DNA of 64,000 nt, taken from NCBI GenBank assembly GCA_963808755.1, contig CAWEGP010000002.1, positions 379,245-443,244 of the forward strand, read 5' to 3'. Shown in pieces: positions 1 to 47,348 of the stretch (position 1 is the first letter of the stretch; each line of letters starts with the position of its first letter). Source of the stretch: Candidatus Eremiobacteria bacterium (GTDB lineage Bacteria > Vulcanimicrobiota > Vulcanimicrobiia > Vulcanimicrobiales > Vulcanimicrobiaceae). The notes under the pieces are model-generated. The model saw only the letters and a list, made by a program, of their open reading frames with translations, did no database searches and had not been told where the DNA came from. A program made the translations under genes and the position numbers.

Positions 1-84
1 AACCGGCTGACTGAAGGTCGCCGCCTCCCGGACGCTCCAAAAAAGGCCGGCAGTCATCACGACCCGATTACGCCGTGCGTTACT

Positions 85-1551
85 GTGACACAAATGGGTC
101 AGCGTCTAACGCACGCCGGTATTTTCGTCGACAGACGATGTCCCGTGCCGTTGCACACGCAACTAGCAACGGCACTTCGTGATGCAATTCTGACGGGACG
201 GTTATCGCGAGGCGAGCGACTCCCGTCGAGCCGAGATCTGCAGACGTTCCTAGGAATCTCCCGCAATACCGTGGTCGATGCCATCGAACAACTGCAAAGC
301 GACGGCTTTCTGTTCACCGTGCCGGGGGTAGGCACGTTTGTTGCAAAGCACATCAAGGCGCGCCTCGAGCCTATGCAGTCGTCCTGCCGGCCGGACCTCG
401 TGCCGACGCCTTTAGCCGAAGCATACATCGAGGCGGCACCGCTGGTCCAATATTTGAGCGGAGGACTACCACTTCGTCCCTGCGTGCCCGCGCTCGATCT
501 CTTTCCTACAACGCTCTTTCGTCGTTGTTTTCGCCCGGAAGACTGGATGCCGGACCAGCTCGACTATCCCGAGCCGCGGGGTTATGAGCCACTCCGTGAA
601 GCTATCGCACAGCGCCTGCGACTGACGCGGGGACTCGATTGTTCGGCCGAACAGGTCTTCATAACGAATGGCGCGCAACGCGCGATATGGATGGCAGCGA
701 CGGTACTACTGCGCGAAGGCGATGGTGTGATCGTAGAGGACCCTTCATATCCACACGTTCGCGCACTGCTTCGCGCGAATGGCGCTCGCCTGCTGCCGAC
801 GCCGGTAGATAAGGACGGCATGGACACGAATTTGCTCGCGTCCTCAGGAGCCCGGCTCGCTTACGTCACACCTTCGCATCAATACCCGACCGGCGCCATG
901 CTTTCACTGGAACGCCGCTTTGCGTTGCTTGAGTGGAGCGAGCGTAACGATGCATGGATCATCGAAGACGACTATGACTCTGAGTTTAACTACACGGGTC
1001 GTCCGCAGACGGCACTCCACGGTTTAGGTGAGGGGCGCCGCGTGCTCTACGTTGGAACGTTCAGCAAAGTGCTCTCCCCAGCTTTGCGCACCGGTTATCT
1101 TATTGTCCCTCTTGAACTCGTGCACGCGTTTTCATCCATTCAAAGGGTCACTGGCGGTGCTCCTGATATACTGTTGCAATCCGCGCTCGCTCGATTTATC
1201 TCGGAGGGGCATTTCGGCCGGCACATCACCAAAATGCGTAAGGTGTACGACCAACGCCGCGAACAGGTTGCCAGAGCGCTTACTACAGCCGGCAAAGGAG
1301 CATTTCGCATTCGCGACTCCAAAGCCGGACTGCATTTCATCGCCGAAGTCGACTCTGAAATCAATGACAAGCTGCTGAGCGAACGTGCAAGAAGCGCCGG
1401 GATAACTGTACCTCCGCTGACGAAGTACTTCTCGCGCAAAACGGAGGAGCGGGGGCTCGTTGTCGGATTCGCCGCGACGCCGCCCTCAGCGACGCGTACG
1501 GCCGTCGGTGCACTGGTGAACGCACTCGAGAGCCTGCTTCAACGAGTTTAA
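85..1551 (+). CDS. MocR/GabR-type regulator: N-terminal GntR winged HTH fused to a PLP-dependent aminotransferase-fold domain (start GTG 85 or ATG 94)
   Basis: N-terminal 'LPSSRDLQTFLGISRNTVVDAIEQLQSDGFL' is GntR HTH-like. The long C-terminal domain carries a class I/II aminotransferase-like 'GTFSKVLSPALRTGYLIV' lysine motif. The TAA stop overlaps the ATG of the next gene (TAATG). Confidence 0.75.
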   Translation: MTQMGQRLTHAGIFVDRRCPVPLHTQLATALRDAILTGRLSRGERLPSSRDLQTFLGISRNTVVDAIEQLQSDGFLFTVPGVGTFVAKHIKARLEPMQSSCRPDLVPTPLAEAYIEAAPLVQYLSGGLPLRPCVPALDLFPTTLFRRCFRPEDWMPDQLDYPEPRGYEPLREAIAQRLRLTRGLDCSAEQVFITNGAQRAIWMAATVLLREGDGVIVEDPSYPHVRALLRANGARLLPTPVDKDGMDTNLLASSGARLAYVTPSHQYPTGAMLSLERRFALLEWSERNDAWIIEDDYDSEFNYTGRPQTALHGLGEGRRVLYVGTFSKVLSPALRTGYLIVPLELVHAFSSIQRVTGGAPDILLQSALARFISEGHFGRHITKMRKVYDQRREQVARALTTAGKGAFRIRDSKAGLHFIAEVDSEINDKLLSERARSAGITVPPLTKYFSRKTEERGLVVGFAATPPSATRTAVGALVNALESLLQRV

Positions 1552-1847
1552 TGGAGGCGACAGACGATGCCAATGTGGAACAGCGCTTGTCTATGAAGAG
1601 CCACGACGTCGGCGGGCGGGAGGATTTTGGTCCAGTCGACCCGACAGACGGACCACCGTTTCATCACGAGTGGGAGGCGCGCATTTTCGCAATAAATCGC
1701 ACACTCTTGAAGCGCGGTCTGTACACGCTCGATCAATTTCGCGACGCGGTTGAGCGCACGTGTTCGCACAACTACGAAACGACGCCGTATTATGAGCGAT
1801 GGGTTCGTGCGGTCGAGGCGCTCATCTCCGAAAAAGGACTCTCGTAG
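1551..1847 (+). CDS. nthB: Nitrile hydratase beta subunit, N-terminal half (ToyK-like split beta)
   Basis: 'SHDVGGREDFGPVDP...PFHHEWEARIFAI...YYERWVRAVEALISEKGL' matches the N-domain of NHase beta. ATG overlaps the MocR stop. Ends with TAG at 1845-1847. Confidence 0.7.
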   Translation: MEATDDANVEQRLSMKSHDVGGREDFGPVDPTDGPPFHHEWEARIFAINRTLLKRGLYTLDQFRDAVERTCSHNYETTPYYERWVRAVEALISEKGLS

Positions 1848-1850
1848 GCG

Positions 1851-2120
1851 ATGACGCTCGCGGTACACGAATCGATCCGTACGCGAGACGCCCAACACGG
1901 CGGCCACACCCGTTTACCAGCATACCTGGCGGGCAAACGCGGCACGGTCGAGCGGGTCGTCGGTGAGTTTCCATTCCCGGACGACGTTGCGGCGGGGGTC
2001 CGAGACTCCAACGCGACGCTGTACACGATTCGCTTCGAAGGCCGGGAACTATGGAGCGGAGCCGATTGCAACGCTGTCTATGCCGACCTCTTCGAGCCAT
2101 ATTTGGAGCAGTACCAATGA
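1851..2120 (+). CDS. nthB: Nitrile hydratase beta subunit, C-terminal half (ToyL-like)
   Basis: 'GKRGTVERVVGEFPFPD...TLYTIRFEGRELWS...YADLFEPYLE' matches the C-domain of NHase beta. ATG lies 3 nt after the in-frame TAG of the previous ORF, in the same reading frame, with AAGGA about 12 nt upstream. TGA overlaps the alpha subunit ATG. Confidence 0.7.
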   Translation: MTLAVHESIRTRDAQHGGHTRLPAYLAGKRGTVERVVGEFPFPDDVAAGVRDSNATLYTIRFEGRELWSGADCNAVYADLFEPYLEQYQ

Positions 2121-2722
2121 ACGTCGACGGCCACACGCACGATCACACCGGAAGCGCAGCCGTCTCGAGTCGCGTGAAGGCGATCGTGTCGCGCCTTGAA
2201 GCTGACGGCATCACAACAGAACGAGAACTCGACGAAATCGTCGAGCAGTTTCTTCTGAGGGCGCGAGCGGAAAACGGTTACGGCATCGTGGCGCGAGCAT
2301 GGATCGATGCCGGATTTAAAGAGCGGTTATTGAGCAATGCCAACGTTGCGATAGCGGAACTCGGAATCGATCTCACGCACTGGGCTCCTGTAAAACTCCG
2401 CGTAGTCGAGAATACACCTGATGCCCACAACATTATCACGTGCACGCTTTGTTCGTGTTATCCGATTGCGCTGCTCGGACCGTCGCCGCAGTGGTACAAG
2501 AGCGAGGCATATCGCTCGCGAGTCGTGCGCGAGCCGCGAGAGATCCTTTCAGATTTCGGGGTGTCATTGCCGGATACGGTGGCGGTCAACGTTTGGGACA
2601 GCACTGCTGAGGTGCGGTACATGGTTCTACCCGTGCGCCCGCGCGATACAGAATCCCTGAATGAAACGCAGCTGGCTCAACTCGTAACCCGCAACGGATT
2701 GATCGGAACAGCTCTCGTTTAG
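2117..2722 (+). CDS. nthA: Nitrile hydratase alpha subunit, cobalt type (upstream part of ORF 2051.. is probably not translated)
   Basis: Metal-binding claw 'ITCTLCSCYP' (Thr/Tyr variant of CxLCSC, typical of Co-type). ATGA overlap with the beta-C stop. About 202 aa, typical alpha size. Confidence 0.85.
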   Translation: MNVDGHTHDHTGSAAVSSRVKAIVSRLEADGITTERELDEIVEQFLLRARAENGYGIVARAWIDAGFKERLLSNANVAIAELGIDLTHWAPVKLRVVENTPDAHNIITCTLCSCYPIALLGPSPQWYKSEAYRSRVVREPREILSDFGVSLPDTVAVNVWDSTAEVRYMVLPVRPRDTESLNETQLAQLVTRNGLIGTALV

Positions 2723-2731
2723 CTGACCCCA

Positions 2732-5170
2732 CTAACGCGCTTGCCGCAAAGTGATGAGCGCTGCGTACGCCGCATCTTGCACGACCCATTGCGGATCGCG
2801 CGCTTGGATTTGTGCGAGCACGGGAATCGCGGATGGGTTCCCGAGCGTACCGAGCGCGCGAACTGCCGCCATCCGAGAACTCACCAATGGATCGTTTAGC
2901 GCGATGGATTGCAGCCGATCTTTCGCACCGTCGAGTTTCAGCGCGCGAGCTAATTCGGCATAAGCCGTGATGGCCGCGGCACGCTCCTGATCCGGCGTAC
3001 CATACGTCATGTGACCTTCAATCAACCGCAGGGCGTCACGCCGCCCGGTCTTTGCGAGGCCAGCTAGCGCGCCGGAAGCAACGGCACTGCCATACGAGGG
3101 TCGCTGCAACGCCGCGGCGAGGCGGCTATAACTCGCGCGCGGATCGATCGTACCGAGCGCTGTAAGTGCGCTCCCCGCGATCAGTGGATCCTTGTCTTCG
3201 CTGAATGCTCGTACGCGCGACACCACAGCCCGTCCCGGCGAGTGAAGATTCTCGGTGGCCTCGATTGCCGCGATCCGAACTCGCGCATCCGGGTCACGAA
3301 ACAACGCCTCAACGGTCGCGCCGTCGCCGTGTGTTGCCGCAATTGCGACGGCGTCCGCTCGAACGCCGTACGAGGGATCGCGCCGGGCAACCAATGCAAT
3401 CGCCGCGGCGCCTGCCGAAGATCGCGCTGCGTGCGAAAGCTGCGCCAATGCCCACTCGCGATCGATGACATGCGGAGCACGCGTCGCTTGAAACGCAAGC
3501 TCTCCTGGCGTTTTCGTGAACTCGACATCATGCAGCAGCAGACCGTCGGGATCAAAAAGAACCATTTGCGGCGTCGCATCGACGCCAGGGATTACGACGG
3601 TTTCATCGTTTCGAGCGATCACCGGGTGTGCGGTGTGGACGCGTCCATCGACCCACACTTCTATTTCAACCGGCAGCCGGTACGGCAGTCCATCGATGTT
3701 CTTCTGGACGATCTTCAGCCCGACGGTATGGTGTACAGCGTCGTAGTGTTGGGCAATCCGAAGATGCGGATAGCCTGGGCGAAAGAACCACTGCTCCTCA
3801 AACCACCCGAGTGACGTACCGCTGACGCTTTCCGCAATTGCGAAAAATTGGTGAGTATCGGCGCGGCCATACCGGTACTTTTCAAGATAGGTATGTAAGA
3901 TACGGAAAAACGTGCGGTCACCCAGCATAGCGCGCAAGCCGTGGAGCACGGCTGCAGCGCGCTCGTGACTGCTCGAATCGAAGAGGTCGAGCGGAATATG
4001 GTATTCGTTGTCTACAATCGGACGATGATACGCCGCGTCTTCCGCATAGTACCGCTGTTGTCCGAGATAGCGATCGTATTCAAAATCTACAGTGCCGAAG
4101 CGCTTTTGATCCCAGAGCTGCTCAAGGTACGTTGCAAAGCCCTCTCCCAACCAACAGTTGGCCCAGTCGTTCATCGTGACATCGTCACCAAACCATTGCT
4201 CCGCCAGTTCGTGAGAGACGACGGCGTCGCACGACTTTTCAACGTCGGTATTCGCCGGGTGAAGGTACTGGTCAGCCAAGATCGTTGCGGACGCGTTTTC
4301 CATGCCGCCGTATGTAAAGCGTTCGACGGCAATCTGATCGTATTTTTCCCAGGGCAACGGGACACCCAAAAGATCGCCGAAGTAGTCGACCATCTGCGCC
4401 GTGTTCCCGAAGCAACTCACGCTATCACTCGCCAGGCTAGGGCGCACAAACGCATCGACAGCGAGGTGCCGGGATTGCGTGTGCAGTTTCGCAAACGGAC
4501 CTGCAGCGAAGGCGATGAGATATGTCGACTTCGGATGTGGCGAATTCCAGTCCCACGTCTCTGTACTGGCCGCCGTCGTGTGCGAACGCAAGTAACCATT
4601 GCCAATTGCTGACCATCCGCGAGGCACCGTGATGACCAGTTCACTCGGCGTCTTTTCGTTCGGTTCATCCCACGTCGGGAACCAATACCGGTTATCGTTT
4701 GTCTCGCCTTGGGTCCACACTTCAGGCGTGAGGCGCGGATATCCACGATCGGGTTGCATGCAGAACAAGCCGCGCTGCGGTCGAGCCGAATAGACGAAGC
4801 GAACGCTAAACCGGTTCCCGACACCCGCGGGAACCGTTACCGCAACCGTTTCTCGAGCGGGATCTTGCGAAAATTGTGCAACCCGCCCGTTCACGGAAAT
4901 ATAACGGTAGTGGATGTCGCCGCTGTAAAACGGGAGCGCCCGAAGTCCTGCGGCTTTGGTTTGAACGATCGCCGTTTCGTCTCCGAAGACGGTGCATCGC
5001 GATGGATCGACGCGAACCCGAACGACGGTGTTTTCAAAGCGGTACGGCGACTCGGGTAACACGTGCACGCTCGCCATGCCATCTCCGAACAGCGATCCAC
5101 GAGGCGCTGCCCCAAGCGCGAACGCAACGCATGTGACGAGAATCAAAGCGCGAACACATCGGTTGATCAT
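2732..5170 (-). CDS. Secreted M1-family zinc aminopeptidase with C-terminal PBS-lyase-type HEAT repeats (ORF extends to 5239; ATG at 5170 gives signal peptide MINRCVRALILVTCVAFALGAAP)
   Basis: 'FTYGGMENASA' (GAMEN-type exopeptidase motif). 'HELAEQWFGD...WLGEGFATY' is HExxH plus the distal Glu. The C-terminus has repeated 'AAxALGxLGDPRAxxxL'-like HEAT units. Confidence 0.75.
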   Translation of the reverse strand: MINRCVRALILVTCVAFALGAAPRGSLFGDGMASVHVLPESPYRFENTVVRVRVDPSRCTVFGDETAIVQTKAAGLRALPFYSGDIHYRYISVNGRVAQFSQDPARETVAVTVPAGVGNRFSVRFVYSARPQRGLFCMQPDRGYPRLTPEVWTQGETNDNRYWFPTWDEPNEKTPSELVITVPRGWSAIGNGYLRSHTTAASTETWDWNSPHPKSTYLIAFAAGPFAKLHTQSRHLAVDAFVRPSLASDSVSCFGNTAQMVDYFGDLLGVPLPWEKYDQIAVERFTYGGMENASATILADQYLHPANTDVEKSCDAVVSHELAEQWFGDDVTMNDWANCWLGEGFATYLEQLWDQKRFGTVDFEYDRYLGQQRYYAEDAAYHRPIVDNEYHIPLDLFDSSSHERAAAVLHGLRAMLGDRTFFRILHTYLEKYRYGRADTHQFFAIAESVSGTSLGWFEEQWFFRPGYPHLRIAQHYDAVHHTVGLKIVQKNIDGLPYRLPVEIEVWVDGRVHTAHPVIARNDETVVIPGVDATPQMVLFDPDGLLLHDVEFTKTPGELAFQATRAPHVIDREWALAQLSHAARSSAGAAAIALVARRDPSYGVRADAVAIAATHGDGATVEALFRDPDARVRIAAIEATENLHSPGRAVVSRVRAFSEDKDPLIAGSALTALGTIDPRASYSRLAAALQRPSYGSAVASGALAGLAKTGRRDALRLIEGHMTYGTPDQERAAAITAYAELARALKLDGAKDRLQSIALNDPLVSSRMAAVRALGTLGNPSAIPVLAQIQARDPQWVVQDAAYAALITLRQAR

Positions 5171-5326
5171 CTGCGTTGTACCGCTTCGTGACGTTGCAAT
5201 GAGCACCATTCTCTGCGACGAGATGCTTGTCACGCTCAAGGAGCGAAATTCGTTATCCGGCGGGCGGTATACGCGTCCACCTTATCCCTGAGAGAGAATA
5301 CCGCACTGAAACGCAATTGGTACTCT

Positions 5327-7415: not shown

Positions 7416-10400
7416 ATGAAACGTCTCACGTTACGGCGTTCGTTGGTGGCACTCCTGACCGCTCTTCTCACGCTCTGCCAGGTAACATGGGCGCTGGCAG
7501 GCACGACGGGCGGCCTCGGCGGTGTCGTCATGGGCGAGGACGGCAAGCCCGTCTCCGGGGCGGCTGTAAAAGTCGCCTCGGCGTCACAAACGAGTACCAC
7601 TGAAACCGATTCTTCAGGACACTTCAATTTTTTGAGTCTGGCGCCGGATACGTATACGGTGTCGATCGGAAAAGAAGGATACAATCCTATTGCGTATGCC
7701 GGCGTGTCGGTATTTGCCGACAATCAAGTCGCGCTATCGTTTCGCATGCAAAAACAACTCAAGACGATCGCGAACGTCACCTCACGGGCTGCCGGTGACG
7801 TCGTAAAGTCAGGGGTCGGTTCAGACATTTACAATGTCAACGCGAAGCAAATTGACGCCGCAGCGGTGTTGGGCGGCGGCGCCAACTTGAACAACGCGTA
7901 TTCGGCGATTTCGTCAGTTCCGGGAGTAACGGTGCCCAGCGGCGGCATGGGCTGGAATCAGCCAACCTACGTCCGCGGCTCGCAGAGCTTCTTCACGGGC
8001 TTCGAATACGATGGTATTCCCGTGAATCGCTCCTTTGATAACTACGTTGCTTCAACGGAGTCGAATCTGGGCTTGCAAGAACTTCAGGTGTACACCGGTG
8101 GGGGACCATCGTCGAATTCATCGTCAGGCACATCTGGATTCATAAATCAGGTTATCAAGACGGGTACGTACCCGGGATATTTTTCGCTCAACGGCGGCAT
8201 TGGAACCCCAACGTTCTACCATCAATTGAAAATTGAAACCGGCGGCGCAACACCCGATCGGCGATTCAGTTACTACGCCGGCCTGAGTGGGTACGATCAA
8301 TCGTTCCGTTACCTCAACAATCAAAATGGGGCAAACTTCATGCAACCCGGCGACGTACGGGACGGATACAGTACCGCGAGTACCGGGACGATTCAAAACT
8401 TAGTGTTCGAAACGGTAGCACCCCTCTGCAATCCCGGAACGAACGTTACTCCTTCATCCGTATCTGGACTTTCGTGGTTCCAACCGGACTTGAATCTCAT
8501 CTCAGGCGGAAGCGCGACGTCTAACTGCCTGATTACATATCCAAATCAGTACGGGTATATCAATGGCATCTCGGACAGGGAGAACATCTTCAACTTCCAC
8601 TTCCGCATTCCGCGTAAGAATGGTCAGAGCGATGATCTTCAGTTGCTCGGCAGCACGTCGGAATTGAGAACCTCCGTGGATTCGAGCATAAACGATGCAG
8701 GCGGTTACGACGCCTACACGCTTGCAGTCACCGGCCAACCGTATTGTGCTCCAACACAGCAGAGCAATTCGAATCCCGCGTGCGGCACCGGTTCATCCTA
8801 TGCACCGAATTATCCGAACTACGTCGATGCTGTGGTGTACAACGCCCCCTTCGGGACGCCGATATCCACCCTTAAGACGCAGGTATACTATCAGCCGTCA
8901 TCGAGCGACCCGGCGCGCGGATATTTGGCCCAAATACCAGCCAACCTACGCGACGTTCAGGATAATGATACCGGCGTTGTGAAACTTCAATACACCCATC
9001 AATTGGGAAGTAACGCGTATATCCGCGCGTTCGGATACACGTTTTATTCGGACTGGATGATCACATTCCCGAATTACGCCTACAACGGGTACCAGGAAGG
9101 TATTGGCGGCCCAACCGACGCCAATTCCATATCCGGGGCTGCAAACTATGATCTGATCACTCATACTGCGGGCGGCGAGTTGCAATTCGCGGATCAGCTC
9201 ACGAGCGCACATCTGTTAGAGTTAACTGCCAATTATACGACGGCAAATGTGATTCGCTTTAACAACAGCGGCTTTACGTCGGGACCCAGCGCATCGCCGA
9301 TCGGTATCGTTAGTGACAGCGGCGGTCAATTTAGCTGCTGGGACGAACATCCCGGAGACTCCACTTTCGACCAGACCGTGCCTTGTGTCCCGAGTGGAAG
9401 CGCGTTTAAGAAGTGGGGATCCCACGCGAGCAGTGGACCATATAACAACGCCGCCATCGGGCCAAATGCCGCAGCCGCCGGCGCGCAATGGATTACCCTT
9501 TGGGACGGCAATGCGGCGGGCTCGTACAATACCGTTAAACCCGATTTCTCGTTCGTCTCGCTTGGCGATCAATGGCGCCCGAACGACAAGCTCCTCTTGA
9601 ACTTCAATCTGCGCTATGAAAACTATCTGTACAAAATGCCGTCTCAGGCAAGTTTGGCCACACAATTCTACGCTCAGGTTGAGCAACATGACGTGTGTGT
9701 GAACGGGTCGGGCGGAGTATTGACACAGCCGCTTTTACCGGGTCAACCACCGCCGGCGCCGGTGATCTACACATCAAGCTGCTCTGCGGGGACGGTCGTA
9801 AAGGGATATCCGAACGGTCTTCCGGCCGGGTACAGTCATCCAAACTTCTCGGCGAATTCGCCGCCGAGCTACACGATAGCAAACGTGTCGCCGCGATTCT
9901 CGGCGACGTATTCGCAATCACCTGACACAGTGTGGCGCGTTTCCGCGGGACGTTTCACAGAACCGCCGATTTCGGCCTCGATTCAGTACCTGAATACCTC
10001 CGGGAATAACCTCACCGTGTGGAACGCGACGCTGCCCCTCGGCTTCGACTCGCCGTTCCATCCGATACCGGAGATGACCGCCAACCAGTTCGATCTCTCG
10101 CTAGAACGTCACATTCGCGGCTCGGATGTCAGCTTCAAGATTTCCCCATTCTACAACCTTACGAATGACTATCAGGAGCAGGCATTTATTGGGCCTAGTT
10201 TTGTGACGCAAGCCCCAGTCGGTCAATTCCGCTCGACCGGTGCAGAATTCGCCATTTCAAAAGGCGACTTTGCCCGCGACGGCTTGTCGGGTCAGTTATC
10301 GTTAACATATACCGACGCCAAGGTTCAATACGGTGCCTTCTTCGGCCCAAATTCGAACCAGCTCGTCGGCGTGAATAACGTCATTAGCGAGTTCAATAAG

Positions 10401-11297
10401 CTAACGCAGGCTGGCGGGGGCTCTCAGTGCTATCTCGCCGGTAGCCCTGCTGCATGTTCTACGGCGGGCGCGATTCTGAACCCATACTACAACACAGCAT
10501 TGCAGTCACCCATCGCAACAAACGGATGGTATCCGGGCGGTGACGCCGGTTTGTCTGCAACGAACAATCCGACGACGACGTATTTCGATTCACCTTGGAA
10601 CGGAACGCTTATTCTGAACTACCGCAAGAGGAAGTTTGCAATTACGCCTTCCATTCAAATAGCCGAAGGATCATCATACGGCGGCCCGCTGGACGTGGTA
10701 GGCATCGACCCGCGCACATGCGGTGCGAATTCGTCACAAAACTTCCGGCCAAATCCCTCGTACGACCCTTCGCAGCCGGTCAGTCCGACGAACATGCCGA
10801 CGGTTGCAGTGACACCGATAACAACGCTGTCGCCAAACACAAATCCGAACCAGTGCGACGCGCTAACCGCACCCGGCACCTTCTCAGCAGCGGCTGGACA
10901 ACTCTTCATTCCGAATCCGCAGACTGGACAGTTTGCGCAACCCGGAGCCTACCGAAATCCGTGGGTAGTCGTCGGCAACCTCGCGATGTCGTACGATCTT
11001 TCACCACGCCTGTCGGCCAGCGTAACGGTTGGCAATCTGTTCCACACGTGCTTCGGCGGAACGAAAATGCCATGGACAGCGGCGTACGGCCCGAGCCCGA
11101 GCAGCTGTGGCTATACGCCGAATCCGCTCTACGTCTCAAACTTCTACAACGGCACGAGTCCATACGATGCTGCTGCGAACGGAACCACTCCGTATCCGTG
11201 GCAAGTGCAATCGTACATACCGTCTCGTAGTGGCTCGGATGCAGGTGGCATTCCATCGCCACTCAATGTGTTCTTCTCGCTCAATGTGAAAATGTAG
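7416..11297 (+). CDS. Giant outer-membrane TonB-dependent-receptor-like protein with N-terminal carboxypeptidase-regulatory-like domain (1293 aa)
   Basis: Signal peptide. 'GGVVMGEDGKPVSGAAVKV...TDSSGHFNFLSLAPDTYTVSIGKEGY' is a CarbopepD_reg-like fold. The long Gly/Ser/Thr/Asn/Tyr-rich remainder is consistent with a beta-barrel. SD AAGAGGAAA upstream. Confidence 0.6.
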   Translation: MKRLTLRRSLVALLTALLTLCQVTWALAGTTGGLGGVVMGEDGKPVSGAAVKVASASQTSTTETDSSGHFNFLSLAPDTYTVSIGKEGYNPIAYAGVSVFADNQVALSFRMQKQLKTIANVTSRAAGDVVKSGVGSDIYNVNAKQIDAAAVLGGGANLNNAYSAISSVPGVTVPSGGMGWNQPTYVRGSQSFFTGFEYDGIPVNRSFDNYVASTESNLGLQELQVYTGGGPSSNSSSGTSGFINQVIKTGTYPGYFSLNGGIGTPTFYHQLKIETGGATPDRRFSYYAGLSGYDQSFRYLNNQNGANFMQPGDVRDGYSTASTGTIQNLVFETVAPLCNPGTNVTPSSVSGLSWFQPDLNLISGGSATSNCLITYPNQYGYINGISDRENIFNFHFRIPRKNGQSDDLQLLGSTSELRTSVDSSINDAGGYDAYTLAVTGQPYCAPTQQSNSNPACGTGSSYAPNYPNYVDAVVYNAPFGTPISTLKTQVYYQPSSSDPARGYLAQIPANLRDVQDNDTGVVKLQYTHQLGSNAYIRAFGYTFYSDWMITFPNYAYNGYQEGIGGPTDANSISGAANYDLITHTAGGELQFADQLTSAHLLELTANYTTANVIRFNNSGFTSGPSASPIGIVSDSGGQFSCWDEHPGDSTFDQTVPCVPSGSAFKKWGSHASSGPYNNAAIGPNAAAAGAQWITLWDGNAAGSYNTVKPDFSFVSLGDQWRPNDKLLLNFNLRYENYLYKMPSQASLATQFYAQVEQHDVCVNGSGGVLTQPLLPGQPPPAPVIYTSSCSAGTVVKGYPNGLPAGYSHPNFSANSPPSYTIANVSPRFSATYSQSPDTVWRVSAGRFTEPPISASIQYLNTSGNNLTVWNATLPLGFDSPFHPIPEMTANQFDLSLERHIRGSDVSFKISPFYNLTNDYQEQAFIGPSFVTQAPVGQFRSTGAEFAISKGDFARDGLSGQLSLTYTDAKVQYGAFFGPNSNQLVGVNNVISEFNKLTQAGGGSQCYLAGSPAACSTAGAILNPYYNTALQSPIATNGWYPGGDAGLSATNNPTTTYFDSPWNGTLILNYRKRKFAITPSIQIAEGSSYGGPLDVVGIDPRTCGANSSQNFRPNPSYDPSQPVSPTNMPTVAVTPITTLSPNTNPNQCDALTAPGTFSAAAGQLFIPNPQTGQFAQPGAYRNPWVVVGNLAMSYDLSPRLSASVTVGNLFHTCFGGTKMPWTAAYGPSPSSCGYTPNPLYVSNFYNGTSPYDAAANGTTPYPWQVQSYIPSRSGSDAGGIPSPLNVFFSLNVKM

Positions 11298-35591: not shown

Positions 35592-37235
35592 TCAAATGCT
35601 CCATTCCCATGTATTCCAAAACGGCGTGACGGCGTGCGCCGGTTTGTAATTCTTCAGATCGGTGTTGACGATGTCGAACTGGCGTTGGTACCAGATCACG
35701 AAAAATGGCAGCTGTTCATTGAGGATGCGTTGGACATTCCCGTATGCCTGGCGCCGTACGTTCCGGTCGTAACTCGTGAGTGCCATGCGCTCCGCAGCGT
35801 CCAGCTGCGGACTGCAAAAGTGATAAATATTCCAACCCGCCGGCGGCGCCATAGAGCACATTACGAGAATCGACTCGTCGGGATCGCTTCCGTTCGCCCA
35901 ATTCTCGATTGCGACGTCAAACTTACCTGATTGCTCGATACCGCCGGCGCCGAGGGTTGCATAGAGCTGTCCCGACGGAAAGTTTTTGATGGAAACGTCC
36001 GCTCCCAGGCGCCGCCACTGCGCTTGCAATAGCGCCTCCGTCGCGGTAATCGTGCCGGACCCGGTGAAACTGACCAGTGTCAGTTGTAGCGGACGGCCGT
36101 CGCGCTCGCGCAGACCTGCGGGCCCTGGATGCCACCCCGCCGCATCGAGAAGCGCTGCTGCTCGGGCCGGGTCGTATGGATACTGGCGCGTGCGAGGATT
36201 GAAGGCCCAAGAAAACGCCGGCTGATCCGTCTGCGCCGGGATTGCGATGTCGTGCGTGACTTTATCGATCAAGGTTCCCCGATCCGTCGCGTATGCGAGG
36301 GCCTGCCGCACCCGCACGTCGGCGAGCGCCGGGTTTGCGGCGTTAAACCCGATATCGGTAAACCGGCTCAATGGAGTTTCGACAACGCGCGTTCCGGAGA
36401 TGTTGCGCAGACTCGAAGCCAACGTTTCCGGCGCGCGGTAAAAGAAATCGATCGCATGCGACTGCATCAACGTCAGCATCGTATTGTCGCTGCCGACAAT
36501 TTGAAACTCGATGCGACGAAGCTTCGGCGGGCCACGCCAATACCGGTTGTTCGCTACAAATACGATTTTGCTTCCCGGCTCGTACGATTCGACGCGAAAA
36601 GGTCCTGTGCCGATCGGCTTCAGGTTGTATGCAACCCTGTTGAGATCGGAATAATGCGACAGCAGATGCGCCGGCAAAATGCAGTCCGCGTGGTTGGCCA
36701 TCGTGAAAAACGTAGCAACAAACGGCGAAAAGCGGTGTCGCAAATGAACGACGATGGTGTAGTCGTCACGCTTCTGAATCCGCGACACGATGTCGTATCC
36801 AAAACGGCTCACCGTAAGGTTCCTCGGGTTCATCATCGCTTGCCAGCTGAAGATGACGTCGTCGGCCGTAAATGGCGCGCCGTCGTGCCATTGTACGCCC
36901 CGACGCAAGTGGTATGTGATGGTCAAACCGTCGCGACTGATACCGCCGTTCGCTAGGCTCGGTATCTGTTCGGCCAGTTCCGGAAGCAACTGGTTGCGAT
37001 CGTCGAGATTGAAGAGGTAGCCGGCCCAGAACATCGAGATGTCGGTGTCGACCGTCTCCGTTCCGAGCAGCATGTTAAGGTTATCGGGATCCTCGCGCTG
37101 CGCGATCCGCAAGGTTCCGGGAATCGTCCAAGCATTGCGACCACCAGACGACGAACCGGAACCTGGACGCGAACAACCCGCGATACCAACCGCAAACGCG
37201 AGCAGCATACTTGCGATGATGCGGTGTCCGCTCAA
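35592..37235 (-). CDS. ABC transporter solute-binding lipoprotein, family 5 (peptide/nickel/opine type); TTG start overlapping upstream stop (alternative ATG at 37208)
   Basis: Lipobox 'GIAGCS'. SBP_bac_5-like 'LTITYHLRRGVQWHDGAPFTADDVIFSW'. No permease/ATPase genes adjacent. Confidence 0.7.
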   Translation of the reverse strand: MSGHRIIASMLLAFAVGIAGCSRPGSGSSSGGRNAWTIPGTLRIAQREDPDNLNMLLGTETVDTDISMFWAGYLFNLDDRNQLLPELAEQIPSLANGGISRDGLTITYHLRRGVQWHDGAPFTADDVIFSWQAMMNPRNLTVSRFGYDIVSRIQKRDDYTIVVHLRHRFSPFVATFFTMANHADCILPAHLLSHYSDLNRVAYNLKPIGTGPFRVESYEPGSKIVFVANNRYWRGPPKLRRIEFQIVGSDNTMLTLMQSHAIDFFYRAPETLASSLRNISGTRVVETPLSRFTDIGFNAANPALADVRVRQALAYATDRGTLIDKVTHDIAIPAQTDQPAFSWAFNPRTRQYPYDPARAAALLDAAGWHPGPAGLRERDGRPLQLTLVSFTGSGTITATEALLQAQWRRLGADVSIKNFPSGQLYATLGAGGIEQSGKFDVAIENWANGSDPDESILVMCSMAPPAGWNIYHFCSPQLDAAERMALTSYDRNVRRQAYGNVQRILNEQLPFFVIWYQRQFDIVNTDLKNYKPAHAVTPFWNTWEWSI

Positions 37236-38038
37236 TGGTGGTCTTTTCGTTCCACCGGAGTGCGAGCGATCATCTCGTCGACAAGCGTGACGATTCCGAG
37301 CGCCGCAGCCTCTAAGAGGCGCCGTCCCTTGTCTGCCGTGGCCTTCGTCGGATCACCCATCACGCCGGTCTCACTGAGCGAGCTCCAGTGTTCCATCATG
37401 ACGAGTGGCCCGTCACCCGCGATCAGATCGGTCCAATAGTTCGCTGTTGGCCGATGCGACAGCTCGCGCGCAGCTTTGGTCATATCCACCAAGTCCGGGC
37501 GCAATGCGAGATAGAGCGACGTTTCAAATTCGCACGCGTGATTCATTCCGCCAACGGCGTCCGATTCGCGAAGTGACTCCGCTACCTCGCGCACGCCTGG
37601 TGCGGACCAATAATTCACTGCTGCTGCAAGAACCCTAGTTTCGACGACGGTGAGACGCGCAATGATATCGATGAAGGGCGTGTTGCTTCCGTGACCGTTG
37701 ACGATAAGGATCTTTCGAAAGCCGTGATGCGCCAGACTCCGGCACACGTCAACGCCATAGTCGATCAGTGTGTGTGCGCCGATCGTTATAGCGCCGGGAA
37801 AATCCATATGGTGCGGGCTGTACCCGTGGTTGATCGCCGGCACGAGCACGACCCGGTCCTTGGCTCGCTCCGCCGCAGCATCACACACCGCACTACAAAG
37901 TCGAAGATCCGTATCGATCGGCAGATGCGGGCCGTGATCTTCCAGCGTCGCAATCGGCACGATCGCAACACGATTTTCTGCCGCGGCTTGTTTGACTTGG
38001 GGCCACGTCATTTCACCGTAACGGTGTAGATCCGGCAT
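37232..38038 (-). CDS. Creatininase-family amidohydrolase (creatinine amidohydrolase / MftE-like); ATG 38038 preferred, alternatives 38059 / TTG 38104
   Basis: 'EMTWPQV...VAIVPIATLEDHGPHLPIDTD...ILIVNGHGSN' are creatininase-family metal-binding motifs. Confidence 0.65.
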   Translation of the reverse strand: MPDLHRYGEMTWPQVKQAAAENRVAIVPIATLEDHGPHLPIDTDLRLCSAVCDAAAERAKDRVVLVPAINHGYSPHHMDFPGAITIGAHTLIDYGVDVCRSLAHHGFRKILIVNGHGSNTPFIDIIARLTVVETRVLAAAVNYWSAPGVREVAESLRESDAVGGMNHACEFETSLYLALRPDLVDMTKAARELSHRPTANYWTDLIAGDGPLVMMEHWSSLSETGVMGDPTKATADKGRRLLEAAALGIVTLVDEMIARTPVERKDHH

Positions 38039-38133
38039 GCTGCCCTCTTCGGCATGCATGGAGGAATCCTTATGCGTGCCTGAACGACGACGCCGGTGAA
38101 GCAATCGCGGGCGCAGTGGAGAAGTGCAGCCTC

Positions 38134-39474
38134 ATGAAAGGTGTTGCCGCCGTTTTTGTACGGCTCTTCGAATATGCGATGCCGGATCCGTACGTCTTCG
38201 CGGTACTGTTGACGCTCGTCACAGCGTTGCTGGCATTGCTCTATGCGCCGCATCACGGCGCTGCCGATATCCTTTCGGCGTGGTACAAGGGCATCTTCGA
38301 TATCTTCGCATTCGCGCTCGAAATGATCCTCATTCTCGTAACGGGATATGCGCTTGCGAGCAGTCCTCCGATTCAGCACACGCTGAAACGCGTTGCCGCG
38401 CTTCCGCGTACATCGCGATCGGCAGTCGTGCTCACGTTTCTCGTTTCGGCGTTCGCCTGCTGGTTGAACTGGGGATTTGGATTGGTTGTGGCGGGTCTTT
38501 TGGCGAGGGAGATCGCCCGCCGGATGCGTGTAGATTTCGGCTGGCTGGTGGCCGCGTCGTACAGCGGATTCTTGATTTGGGCGAGCGGGCTTTCGAGTTC
38601 GATTGCACTGGCTCAAGCGACACCCGGCAGCAAATTGAATATCGTTCAAAACCTCACGGGCGTGGTTTTGCCGCTGTCACAAACGATCTTCACGCGATTC
38701 AATCTCGTGCCGGTAGTAGTACTGCTCGTCATCGTGCCAATCATATTCGTAGCACTCGAGCCGCGCGATGAGGATGTCGTCAGCGGTAATGTCGCGGCGT
38801 TTGACGCGGAGCAGCAACAACCGCAGAAAGAACCCGTCCGCAATCTTGCGTCGGCGCTGGACAATTCTTGGATTCTGAATATCGTTGTGGCCGCCGGCGG
38901 GATCTTCTATCTGCTGTCGACCTGGCTGAAGAGCGGATTCACGCTCGACATCAACAGCGTTATCTTCATCTTCTTCATTCTCGGACTCGTGCTGCATTGG
39001 ACGCCGCTTAACTATGTCCGCGCAGTGGACGGCGCTGCCCGCATTACCGGTCCTCTGTTGATTCAGTATCCACTGTACGGCGGCATCATGGGTATGATGA
39101 CGGCGACCGGCCTCGCGGGTGTGATCGCGCAGTGGTTTTTGACGTTTTCCACGGCGGCAACCTTACCGTTTTGGAATTACGTTTCGAGCATTGTCATTTC
39201 GCTCTTCGTTCCAAGCGGCGGCGGACATTGGGCGGTGCAGGGACCATTCGCCGTTCCGGCTGCCGCGAAACTCGGCGCCTCGCAAGGCGCCACGGCGATG
39301 GCCGTAGCGATCGGTGAGGAGGTCGCTAATATGATTCAGCCATTTTGGTGCCTACCGGTGCTCGCCATTGCGGGTGTGGGACTACGGCGCGTGATGGCTT
39401 TTACCGCGATCGTTTTTTTCGTAGCGCTCGTCATTTTCGGGGCGAGTTTACTGCTTCTCGTGCCACGGCCGTGA
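38134..39474 (+). CDS. atoE: Short-chain fatty acid transporter AtoE-like (TIGR00366 family) membrane protein (ATG 38134; ORF begins GTG 38116)
   Basis: 'MPDPYVFAVLLTL...ALEMILILVTGYALASSPPIQ...ACWLNWGFGLVVAGLLAREIARRM' closely matches the AtoE N-terminal region. Confidence 0.6.
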   Translation: MKGVAAVFVRLFEYAMPDPYVFAVLLTLVTALLALLYAPHHGAADILSAWYKGIFDIFAFALEMILILVTGYALASSPPIQHTLKRVAALPRTSRSAVVLTFLVSAFACWLNWGFGLVVAGLLAREIARRMRVDFGWLVAASYSGFLIWASGLSSSIALAQATPGSKLNIVQNLTGVVLPLSQTIFTRFNLVPVVVLLVIVPIIFVALEPRDEDVVSGNVAAFDAEQQQPQKEPVRNLASALDNSWILNIVVAAGGIFYLLSTWLKSGFTLDINSVIFIFFILGLVLHWTPLNYVRAVDGAARITGPLLIQYPLYGGIMGMMTATGLAGVIAQWFLTFSTAATLPFWNYVSSIVISLFVPSGGGHWAVQGPFAVPAAAKLGASQGATAMAVAIGEEVANMIQPFWCLPVLAIAGVGLRRVMAFTAIVFFVALVIFGASLLLLVPRP

Positions 39475-44576: not shown

Positions 44577-47348
44577 CTAGCCGTGGAACGTTACGGTGAG
44601 CCACGCTTGGCGCGACGGCAATCCATAGAGTTCTGCGCCAGTCCCCTGGTCGATCGCGCTCGTTGCATTCCCGAATTGATTTTGCGGTTGGTAGATGCCG
44701 AGGCCGATGAGACCGTACTGCTGGTACGCACTGTTGAACAGGTTCGTCACCCCAAAGTTCAACGTTACCGGACCACTCGTCTGGGATACCGACGCGTCCG
44801 CGTACCAGAACGGCGGGCGTTTGAACGAGTTCCCCGGGCCGATGTACGTGCCGTCCATCTCGGCACGGAAGCCCGAGGGATTTGCGTAGACGAGGCTCGA
44901 GAACGCTTTGCGTAGCGGCGTCGTGTTGAACTGCGCGTCGTTGATCAACGAAACGTTGTTCTGCAGGATGTTTAGCGGGATACCATTGTACGCTGCCGAC
45001 TGGATGCCGTACTGGCCTTCAAACGTAACGTTGCGGACCAGTCCGACTTGCGCATCGAAATTTATGCCGCGGTACGTTGCACGACCCGCGTTGGCAAAAG
45101 TGCTCCATCCGAGTGCTGCCGGCGTTGCAGTAAATCCACACGACCCGCTGATGCGATCGAGGAAGGCCTGCTGCAGCGTTTCCTGGCCCGCGCCCGAAGC
45201 ATTTGAGACCAGTTTCTGCAGAACCGACGCATATTGCGGGAACGCGGAAAGCGGAAGGTTTCCATTGAGAATCGCGTTCTGCTCGACGGAATTGTACGCG
45301 TCGACTTGCAACACCGTGCGCCGGTTCAGGCGATGTCCCAGCGCCAGCTCCTCGTCCCTCGCCGTTTCGGGCTTCAGACCGGCGTTGCTGACTGTTCCTA
45401 CGGAATTCAACGTCCCGGTTTGACAGGTCGGATTGAGACTGAGGGGCGCACCGGTTTGCGGAATCGTCGAGCTGACGAGTGCCGGATCCGGTTCACTGTA
45501 TGAACGCCCTCCCGTCAAACGAACGACGTCGCTCGACGTGGGACGGTAGACGAACGATATGCGCGGGTCGAAGTTTGTGCTCTGCGTGGTCAACGAGCGT
45601 TGTAACCACAGATCAGAGAAGGTGCTGAACTTCAACGATGGCTGCCACGTGTCGCGAACGAAGTAGCTGGTCGACGTCAAAAAATATGTACCATTGAGTG
45701 TCACACTGTCGGGATTTGTAAACGAGGTGATCCCGGCATGCCGCTGATGTTGCGTGTAGTAGCCGAATGAGATGTCATGACGCCCGGTTTGAAATTCGTC
45801 GGACGCAAGGAAGCCGTGCGTCAAGTACGTGTCGAAAAAGAAGGGACCGGTCAAGCTCTTGTGTTCGTCCGACGTATCGTTGTTGATGAATCCGTCGACG
45901 ACGATCTGGGTTTTGCCGAGCTGTTGGGTGACGCGGCCATGGTAGTCTTGCATATGGCTCGCGTTCCAGCGATTCGGACCACCGCCGGCTGGGCCATAGA
46001 AAGCTTGCGCGTATTGCTGCGCGGTCAAGCATCCGTAGCCCGCCGATGAGTTGTTCAACACAGCGATCGTCGTGTTCGAGCAGGTCGTCGGCGTGCCGTT
46101 CAGGACGAAATTAGTGCCGGTCGAGCTTCCCGCTCCACCGCTGACAAGGCCGTTCGCGTTCTGCAGCACGTAAGGATATGAGTTGTAGTCTTGATCGCCG
46201 TTACCGGTCTTGTCGTTCCACGTCGTCATGTTGTATACGCTTGCCAGCATCTGTGTTTTCGAAGAGGGCGCATACGTCAACTTTGCGAGGCCGTTGCGCT
46301 GCGTGTAATCACCAGTGACGACGTAGGTGTTTGCGGCCAAGTTCGCGGATGTGAGATCGGGCGGCGTAACCGGATTTCCGGAGAAATCGGTGCAGGTGCT
46401 GCAAACGGCGCTCGCGCCAAGGTTGCCCGTCTGCGTAATAGCAGCGGGAGCAAAGGTACCATAGGTGCCTTGCGTTGCACCGGCGAGCGCGTAACCGAAC
46501 TTGCCCATCGTGCCGGTAGCCGTGAAACCGCTTAGGTTATGGCCATTATTACCAACGCCTTGTGTAAATGAACTCTCGCGAGTTTGCGTCGGATTCAGCG
46601 TCTCGAAGTTTACGGCACCGGCGATCGTCGAAACGCCATACAAACCGGCTGCGCCGGATCCGAAGATCACGCTGGTTCCGCTGAGGCCCCAAAACGGCGA
46701 TATTTTGTAATTGTATCCACCCCCGAACGCGCCGATCGGTCCAATCGGATGTCCGTCGAGAAGCGTCGCCGTTTCGGTCGCGTCGAATCCGCGGATGCTG
46801 ATCGACATATCGTCGCCAACCGATGGGCTCGTGGCCGAATTTACTCCGGGCAGGCGCGCGAGCAAATCCCCGACGCGCGCGTAGGAGTAATTTTGCACCT
46901 GCGACGGATCGACGTATTCGTTGATCGTCGTCGTCGTTTGCAGCGAGGAACGCGCTGCGACCGCCACCCGGCCAATCTCTTTGAGGTTCGACGATCCGCC
47001 TCGCGTTGCTTGAACGGCGGTCTGAGTCTGAACCGTGTTACCGTTCGTCAGAACGACGGTCGGCACGCTCGTCGAGACATAACCGCGCGCAACGATGAGC
47101 AGAGAATACTCGCCCTGCGGCTCGTTGGAAAAGGTGTACACGCCGTTCGCATCTGTTGAGGCGACAGCGATTTTTTGACTGCCCGCATCGAGCTCAACGG
47201 TTGCGCCGGGAACGGGTAACCCGCCCGAGGCATCGAGGATACGACCGTTAAGGCCGGCGGTGGCACTCTGTGCCTGAACCGCGAGCGGCGCGCTAAAAAG
47301 CGCTGCCGCGAAGACCGCTGCAAGTGTCCGAGAGTTCATACATTTCAT
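44577..47348 (-). CDS. Outer-membrane TonB-dependent-receptor-like protein with N-terminal carboxypeptidase-regulatory-like domain and plug-like region (923 aa)
   Basis: Signal peptide. 'GRILDASGGLPVPGATVELD...TDANGVYTF' is a CarbopepD_reg fold. 'ISIRGFDATETATLLDGHPI' is plug-like. Long beta-barrel-like remainder. Confidence 0.6.
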   Translation of the reverse strand: MKCMNSRTLAAVFAAALFSAPLAVQAQSATAGLNGRILDASGGLPVPGATVELDAGSQKIAVASTDANGVYTFSNEPQGEYSLLIVARGYVSTSVPTVVLTNGNTVQTQTAVQATRGGSSNLKEIGRVAVAARSSLQTTTTINEYVDPSQVQNYSYARVGDLLARLPGVNSATSPSVGDDMSISIRGFDATETATLLDGHPIGPIGAFGGGYNYKISPFWGLSGTSVIFGSGAAGLYGVSTIAGAVNFETLNPTQTRESSFTQGVGNNGHNLSGFTATGTMGKFGYALAGATQGTYGTFAPAAITQTGNLGASAVCSTCTDFSGNPVTPPDLTSANLAANTYVVTGDYTQRNGLAKLTYAPSSKTQMLASVYNMTTWNDKTGNGDQDYNSYPYVLQNANGLVSGGAGSSTGTNFVLNGTPTTCSNTTIAVLNNSSAGYGCLTAQQYAQAFYGPAGGGPNRWNASHMQDYHGRVTQQLGKTQIVVDGFINNDTSDEHKSLTGPFFFDTYLTHGFLASDEFQTGRHDISFGYYTQHQRHAGITSFTNPDSVTLNGTYFLTSTSYFVRDTWQPSLKFSTFSDLWLQRSLTTQSTNFDPRISFVYRPTSSDVVRLTGGRSYSEPDPALVSSTIPQTGAPLSLNPTCQTGTLNSVGTVSNAGLKPETARDEELALGHRLNRRTVLQVDAYNSVEQNAILNGNLPLSAFPQYASVLQKLVSNASGAGQETLQQAFLDRISGSCGFTATPAALGWSTFANAGRATYRGINFDAQVGLVRNVTFEGQYGIQSAAYNGIPLNILQNNVSLINDAQFNTTPLRKAFSSLVYANPSGFRAEMDGTYIGPGNSFKRPPFWYADASVSQTSGPVTLNFGVTNLFNSAYQQYGLIGLGIYQPQNQFGNATSAIDQGTGAELYGLPSRQAWLTVTFHG

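Follow-up and report, generated by a model that had tools for sequence, protein, structure and literature searches.

The window analysed here is a stretch of 64,000 nt from a Candidatus Eremiobacteria bacterium (assembly GCA_963808755.1, contig CAWEGP010000002.1, positions 379,245 to 443,244; GC content 57.4%). The gene block under study comprises four closely packed open reading frames (ORFs) on its plus strand at 85..2722, namely a gene for a MocR/GabR-type regulator followed by three ORFs of the nitrile hydratase (NHase) family. Judged from their sequences, these three ORFs very probably encode a functional, activator-independent, three-subunit cobalt NHase of the AnhD-AnhE-AnhA type, i.e. 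that of the Streptomyces canus enzyme (ScNHase). This enzyme type is already known, as three-subunit, activator-free Co-type NHases have been characterised (ScNHase and the toyocamycin NHase ToyJKL), and only the position of the cassette directly behind a MocR-type gene is unusual.

Organisation of the locus

The regulator gene (85..1551) encodes 488 residues with a GntR winged helix-turn-helix (HTH) and a pyridoxal phosphate (PLP) aminotransferase-fold domain. It is followed by the AnhD-like betaN subunit gene (1551..1847; 98 residues, 11.3 kDa, or 84 residues and 9.8 kDa for a shorter form starting at the canonical Met15, ATG at 1593), the gene of the SH3-like, AnhE-like betaC subunit (1851..2120; 89 residues, 10.0 kDa) and that of the AnhA-like Co-type alpha subunit (2117..2722; 201 residues, 22.2 kDa). 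The MocR stop codon and the betaN ATG overlap as TAATG (1549-1553), and the betaC stop and the alpha start as ATGA (2117-2120). At the betaN/betaC junction (1845..1853) the stop codon TAG (1845-1847), a GCG triplet (1848-1850) and the ATG at 1851 follow each other in a single frame. The original prediction of a three-ORF NHase next to a MocR gene, with the junctions TAATG, TAG-GCG-ATG and ATGA, therefore holds at all of these coordinates. The three NHase ORFs and the betaN/betaC junction of an independent Logan assembly (L015) are identical to those of the window.

Division of the beta subunit

The two small ORFs match separate Pfam families, betaN PF21006 (E=1.3e-25) and betaC PF02211 (E=2.3e-22). 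In a search of the PDB, betaN aligns to residues ~4-85 of classical beta chains and betaC matches residues 144-226 of 1v29_B (E=4.9e-16) with the GHTR motif kept. As the two ORFs align to separate regions of beta, they correspond to its N and C domains, and the split lies at the domain boundary as had been proposed. The interdomain linker of classical beta subunits, ~45-55 residues in length, is absent from the split proteins in a MAFFT alignment with classical betas.

Among betaN homologues the residues R64, Y80, Y81 and W84 (numbering of the 98-residue form) are invariant. In betaC the GHTR motif is conserved, and relatives also conserve the ATG start of its own. In P. thermophila NHase, the arginines of DxFR and GHTR and the tyrosines of YYxxW contact the oxidised cysteines. 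The DxFR, GHTR and YYxxW residues are all present in the beta halves of the window.

Compared with the accessory-protein model TIGR03889, betaN scores 37 bits and stays under the threshold of 46. A protein search with betaN retrieved solely short proteins of 88-125 residues that contain PF21006 alone. On the minus strand an ORF of 119 codons (1548..1907) overlaps betaN; it is unsupported and was taken as a mechanical ORF of GC-rich DNA.

Alpha subunit and metal type

The match of the alpha subunit to PF02979 (E=5.6e-71) spans 184 of the 184 profile positions, and its top PDB matches are Co-type alpha chains (E=5.7e-53). The metal claw CTLCSCY, encoded at 2441..2461, comprises residues 109-115 and carries the threonine and tyrosine that mark the cobalt type; its residues are invariant in the alphas of the split clade. 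A Co-type alpha subunit with this claw, as originally predicted, is borne out, and the three ORFs are predicted to form a Co-type NHase. The histidine-rich alpha N-terminus (HTHDH) was considered as a clade-specific, built-in metal chaperone and was rejected, because classical alphas are also rich in histidine there.

Comparison with characterised nitrile hydratases

The ScNHase of Streptomyces canus CGMCC 13662 is encoded in the gene order anhD-anhE-anhA (Guo et al. 2019; PMC7329996). Its subunits of 10.41, 11.35 and 21.33 kDa form a D2E2A2 assembly, the genome lacks an activator gene and cobalt is inserted without an activator, with AnhD acting as a metal and self-subunit-swapping chaperone (PMC7329996). 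The enzyme is also treated in PMC11573777 and PMC13243292. The window cassette shares with it the cobalt type, separate N-domain and C-domain beta ORFs, the order betaN-betaC-alpha and the lack of an activator gene, and the calculated masses of 9.8-11.3, 10.0 and 22.2 kDa compare well with the published ones. In contrast to the Streptomyces representative (the cassette of Streptomyces sp. ISL-99 described below), the window belongs to another phylum with ~45-57% sequence identity, and its betaN and betaC genes are separated by a 3-nt in-frame spacer instead of overlapping out of frame. A MocR gene directly upstream is found in the window cassette and not in that of ScNHase.

Classical two-subunit Co-type NHases (for example PDB 2dpp, 1v29, 3qxe and 1ire) agree with the window enzyme in alpha fold, in the CTLCSCY claw and in both beta domains, including the conserved arginine and tyrosine residues. 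Their beta subunit, however, is a single chain of 206-233 residues including the 45-55-residue linker, whereas that of the window is encoded by two ORFs. The plasmid-borne NHase of Microvirga flocculans, for which the order beta1-alpha-beta2 is cited in PMC11573777, appears from that citation to be likewise a three-subunit Co-type enzyme with two beta-derived subunits; there the alpha gene lies between the two beta genes, whereas in the window both are adjacent and upstream of alpha.

In the enzyme proposed here, the alpha subunit would hold Co(III) in the CTLCSC claw, two cysteines of which would be oxidised post-translationally. The Arg of the D-x-F-R motif and the Tyr-Tyr pair of YYERW would be provided by betaN, and the Arg of GHTR by the SH3-like betaC, so that both chains jointly would stand in for a classical beta subunit minus its interdomain linker. 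ScNHase and ToyJKL serve as models for the assembly, which would probably be (betaN-betaC-alpha)2. By analogy with ScNHase, betaN may double as self-subunit-swapping and metal chaperone, a role that would explain why no accessory gene is present.

Distribution and phylogeny of split cassettes

Gene tables were available for ten distinct contexts (L016/L027, L022, L024, L025, L026, L028, L032, L113/L114, one JGI contig and L115), and in all ten betaN, betaC and alpha are three ORFs in that order. In relatives of the alpha clade the subunits measure 87-93 (betaN), 78-96 (betaC) and 196-199 (alpha) residues. The nearest alphas are 65-73% identical to that of the window and 199 residues long, with more than 120 clusters at 90% identity among the matches listed; where named, they belong to Candidatus Eremiobacterota, Baltobacteraceae or Aquilonibacter. 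The nearest betaC cluster is annotated as 'nitrile hydratase subunit beta [Candidatus Eremiobacteraeota bacterium]'. With GenBank already labelling close relatives as NHase subunits, the assignment as such has little weight for basic biology.

An exhaustive HMMER search with betaC yielded 979 representatives at E<=1e-3. Among the best 150 of these, 90 have no betaN domain, and 59 of the 90 are at most 135 residues long. Metagenomes scanned with alphas of the split clade as seeds gave 80 loci, of which 36 encode a classical fused beta and 25 show the order betaN-betaC-alpha with a short junction, the latter including all classifiable loci closest to the window alpha. Other split-looking orders occur in six loci (five alpha-betaN-betaC, one betaC-alpha-betaN), and 13 loci are too short for classification. 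Taken over every alpha-clade relative examined, betaN-betaC-alpha with a short junction recurs, which answers the search for a common split point that had been suggested with the original prediction.

In a neighbour-joining tree the window alpha and six split-type alphas, including that of Streptomyces sp. ISL-99, form a group with 99% bootstrap support that stands apart from 12 classical alphas. The alphas of the split clade share the motif CYP[ILV][AR]LLGPSP, the classical counterpart of which is CYP[WF]xxLG. In the ISL-99 cassette (L032) betaN, betaC and alpha have 93, 96 and 196 residues and are 51%, 45% and 57% identical to their window counterparts, whereas the identity of the window alpha to classical alphas is lower, at 42-52%.

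Three observations from the same searches concern other arrangements. At L025:8001-9405 (GCA_036681025.1) a divergent second split lineage with subunits of 125, 104 and 242 residues was found, which keeps parts of the linker and falls outside the alpha clade of the window; its alpha has a long His/Asp-rich N-terminus, and the cassette lies among several MmgE/PrpD-family genes and a TctABC transporter. The protein P0099 from Logan contigs (290 residues) contains PF02979 and PF21006, and its identity to the window alpha is 69% along the entire query; it represents either an alpha-betaN fusion in a relative or a gene-calling artefact. The plasmid collection contained classical NHases only, plus one orphan betaC-only gene, a 100-residue 'SH3-like domain-containing protein' of the Neorhizobium sp. 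EC2-8 plasmid NZ_CP147997.1 (L029:3974-4276). It has the NHase betaC domain only and is located among ABC transporter genes with no annotated alpha or betaN within 4 kb.

Accessory genes and gene neighbourhood

Phmmer searches of every stop-to-stop ORF in the window, with single example accessory proteins, an amidase and CbtA/CbtB as queries, matched betaN only. Neither an activator nor an amidase nor a CbtA/B-type cobalt transporter was thus detected in the 64 kb, and Pfam searches of 41 of the 59 larger window ORFs revealed none of these families either. The same pattern is seen beyond the window. In a census of loci with at least 500 nt of flanking sequence on both sides, 37 of 38 classical loci carry an additional betaN-like accessory ORF, as against none of the 22 true split loci. 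The earlier statement that no activator or amidase lies nearby is thus upheld, and the lack of both is, as far as these loci tell, a family-wide trait of split cassettes rather than a local oddity. The association of a split, short-linker beta with the lack of an accessory gene is nearly absolute in environmental loci, which lends support to the published proposal that the chaperone function passed to betaN. Such small self-maturing cassettes could serve as convenient biocatalysts.

Before sorting, 5 of 27 split-looking loci carried an accessory ORF. In all five the genes are arranged alpha-betaN-betaC and a gap of ~100 nt, about the size of the linker, is seen; with gap and accessory gene combined they most likely represent frameshifted classical betas and were not counted as true splits. 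The classical alpha-beta-accessory loci at L031:3465-4273 (Agrobacterium vitis plasmid NZ_AP023274.1), L070, L089, L092 and L104 lack a single open frame that covers both the betaN and the betaC match; L031 lists no beta gene, and the betas of all five are probably frameshifted or pseudogenised, mimicking a split.

In Pfam searches of 61 ORFs that neighbour 24 split loci, each family was confined to three loci at most, the amidase-signature family was absent and one CN_hydrolase was present. The split cassette is accordingly an orphan unit in unrelated contexts. A single amidohydrolase-type gene was found in the window; it encodes a creatininase-family protein, is clustered with the genes of a family-5 solute-binding protein and a short-chain fatty acid transporter at 35592..39474 and lies 33 kb away from the NHase genes.

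Several points weigh against the assignment to the ScNHase type. The alpha subunit scores 230.2 bits with the NCBIfam equivalog for classical NHase and does not reach the cutoff of 249.85, and the beta halves score 82.4 (betaN) and 85.0 bits (betaC) with that for classical nthB, short of the cutoff of 152.2. All three proteins are therefore placed outside the classical equivalogs, which also fits a distinct subfamily. The link to ScNHase itself is drawn through the ISL-99 cassette and the published architecture and masses. Moreover, the check for an activator covers the 64-kb window alone, and neither the window nor the 24 split loci offer an amidase or a conserved neighbour that would point to a substrate.

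The MocR-type gene and the start of betaN

The upstream protein matches GntR (PF00392, 7.3e-16) and Aminotran_1_2 (PF00155, 2.4e-26), contains the PLP-lysine motif TFSK and passes the NCBIfam PdxR equivalog NF052282 with 422.5 bits at a cutoff of 320. An alternative start at ATG 94 would give 485 residues, and the gene caller of L015 begins at the equivalent position. Genes resembling pdxS or pdxT were not seen among the window ORFs scanned. On L015 the gene upstream of MocR has a weak methyltransferase match.

The relation of the two genes depends on where betaN begins. Its homologues start at a canonical MxxHDxGG sequence in 15 of 15 cases, corresponding to Met15 of the window protein (nt 1593), and a start at this codon leaves a spacer of 41 nt after MocR. 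No Shine-Dalgarno sequence precedes 1593, while several relatives have a GAGG-type sequence before the canonical start. NCBI and Logan gene calls both give the 98-residue betaN starting at 1551. The TAATG overlap is thus real in the DNA, yet it may not contain the start that is used, and translational coupling of MocR and betaN is possible, depending on the choice between 1551 and 1593. In a scan of 1..3000 for promoters and terminators, neither a plus-strand promoter-like site nor a terminator-like one was found between the four genes. On this weak evidence, the NHase genes are probably co-transcribed with mocR.

MocR/GabR/PdxR-type regulators share with the window protein the GntR HTH and a fold-type I aminotransferase domain with its PLP lysine. 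Characterised members are usually divergent from their targets, in contrast to the window gene, which stands head-to-tail with, and possibly overlaps, the NHase operon. MocR-family regulators are not known to control a nitrile hydratase. That the window protein is a regulator dedicated to the NHase operon, which would depend on PLP, sense an amino-nitrile or amide-related effector and be translationally coupled to betaN, is a tentative idea and rather unlikely. The idea draws on the shared strand with the TAATG overlap (or a mere 41-nt gap), on the uninterrupted intergenic regions, on the missing Shine-Dalgarno sequence ahead of 1593, which together with the gene calls favours the coupled start at 1551, and on a second MocR-like neighbour of a split cassette. 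The latter (L043:1302-2759, minus strand, contig Ga0208099_1000681) is just 27% identical and convergent, lying just downstream of its cassette, and it is the sole other MocR neighbour among ~35 split loci. None of the ~35 other cassettes has a same-strand MocR upstream, so that the adjacency is restricted to this genome. Attachment to an upstream gene is not special either, since in L024:1100-1145 / L023:5945-5990 the stop codon of an unrelated 916-residue CarboxypepD_reg gene and the canonical start of betaN share bases (TGATG, preceded by GGAGGA). The conserved Met15 start and the passing of the equivalog cutoff for a regulator of pyridoxine biosynthesis speak against a dedicated NHase regulator as well. 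The 'unusual regulator-enzyme coupling' of the original prediction is consequently retained as a real adjacency without parallel in the other cassettes, while coupling in the strict sense hinges on the betaN start.

It is also conceivable, though doubtful, that the NHase cassette was captured in a MocR-headed operon, possibly with termination-reinitiation at TAATG, and came under control of an amino-compound effector. Candidates for the latter would be an amino-nitrile, an amino-amide or a vitamin B6-related signal.

Other three-subunit enzymes of the family

Thiocyanate hydrolase (SCNase) also belongs to the NHase family and is built from three subunits, the small ones being equivalent to the N and C halves of beta, and the scn gene order scnB-scnA-scnC would equal that of the window. 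That the window encodes an SCNase is nevertheless very improbable. The PDB matches to its small subunits are weak (2dd4_B, E=0.0029; 2dd4_A, 4.5e-5), and the match to 2dd4_C (8e-35) is far surpassed by the NHase chains (5.7e-53). With the NCBIfam gamma model TIGR03887 160.6 bits are reached at a cutoff of 291.45, as opposed to 230.2 bits with the NHase alpha model, and the subunits of 2dd4 are much larger (157, 126 and 243 residues).

ToyJKL, the toyocamycin NHase (TNHase) of Streptomyces rimosus and the analogue named in the original prediction, is an (alpha-beta-gamma)2 hexamer (PMC8574189). Its alpha (PF02979), beta (PF21006) and gamma (PF02211) subunits of 21.2, 10 and 11.4 kDa reflect the same split as in the window, and like the window enzyme it is of the cobalt type without a separate activator, its alpha maturing alone. 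The naming of the Toy genes suggests that alpha comes first, whereas it comes last in the window. The three-subunit make-up is thus common to both, and ScNHase, with the same order of genes, similar masses and no activator, is the closest published analogue. On the strength of the shared make-up the window enzyme might be taken for a ToyJKL orthologue acting on 7-deazapurine nitriles, a reading that has hardly any probability. ToyJKL is toyocamycin-specific and encoded in the toy deazapurine cluster, whereas no deazapurine or queuosine-type genes were found by Pfam among the 41 of 59 larger window ORFs or beside the relatives, and the cassette is spread across unrelated contexts in non-actinobacterial metagenome-assembled genomes (MAGs).

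Origin of the split

Junctions were measured in eight cassettes, namely that of the window and those of seven relatives with 46-69% alpha identity. The betaC/alpha overlap ATGA is present in all eight. In contrast, the betaN/betaC junctions of the seven relatives measure -13, -11, -11, -8, -8, -4 and +19 nt, the two frames differ in every one of them, and the 3-nt in-frame spacer occurs only in the window. Because the beta frames differ in all seven relatives, the in-frame TAG-GCG-ATG is, as far as the sequences tell, a coincidence, a roughly one-in-three accident of a variable junction. No stop codon is used more often in the window than TAG, which ends 14 of 35 Pfam-supported ORFs, and the alpha gene is likewise terminated by it.

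The split of beta is, by the same comparison, ancestral to a large clade that includes Eremiobacterota-like MAGs, Streptomyces and others. The layout extends beyond Streptomyces and characterises a large, old clade that is apparently very common in Eremiobacterota-like MAGs from soil and peat. Uninterrupted beta genes in close relatives, named with the original prediction as a sign of a recent nonsense mutation, are the opposite of what is seen, as the relatives keep two ORFs. A recent amber mutation or programmed TAG read-through in a single beta gene, with a pseudogene or a fused beta as product, takes support from the shared frame of the two window ORFs with TAG-GCG alone between them and is practically excluded by the frame-shifted junctions of the seven relatives, the short-junction split in 25 further metagenome loci, a classical linker that is missing and not just interrupted, the conserved ATG of betaC and the usage of TAG.

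Further genes of the window

Downstream of the NHase cassette, the convergent gene of an M1 peptidase with HEAT repeats noted earlier is present on the minus strand at 2732..5239, as identified by Pfam. Two very large proteins of 1293 and 923 residues with CarboxypepD_reg and Plug domains are encoded at 7416..11297 (+) and 44577..47348 (-), respectively, the former containing in addition a TonB-dependent receptor beta-barrel domain.

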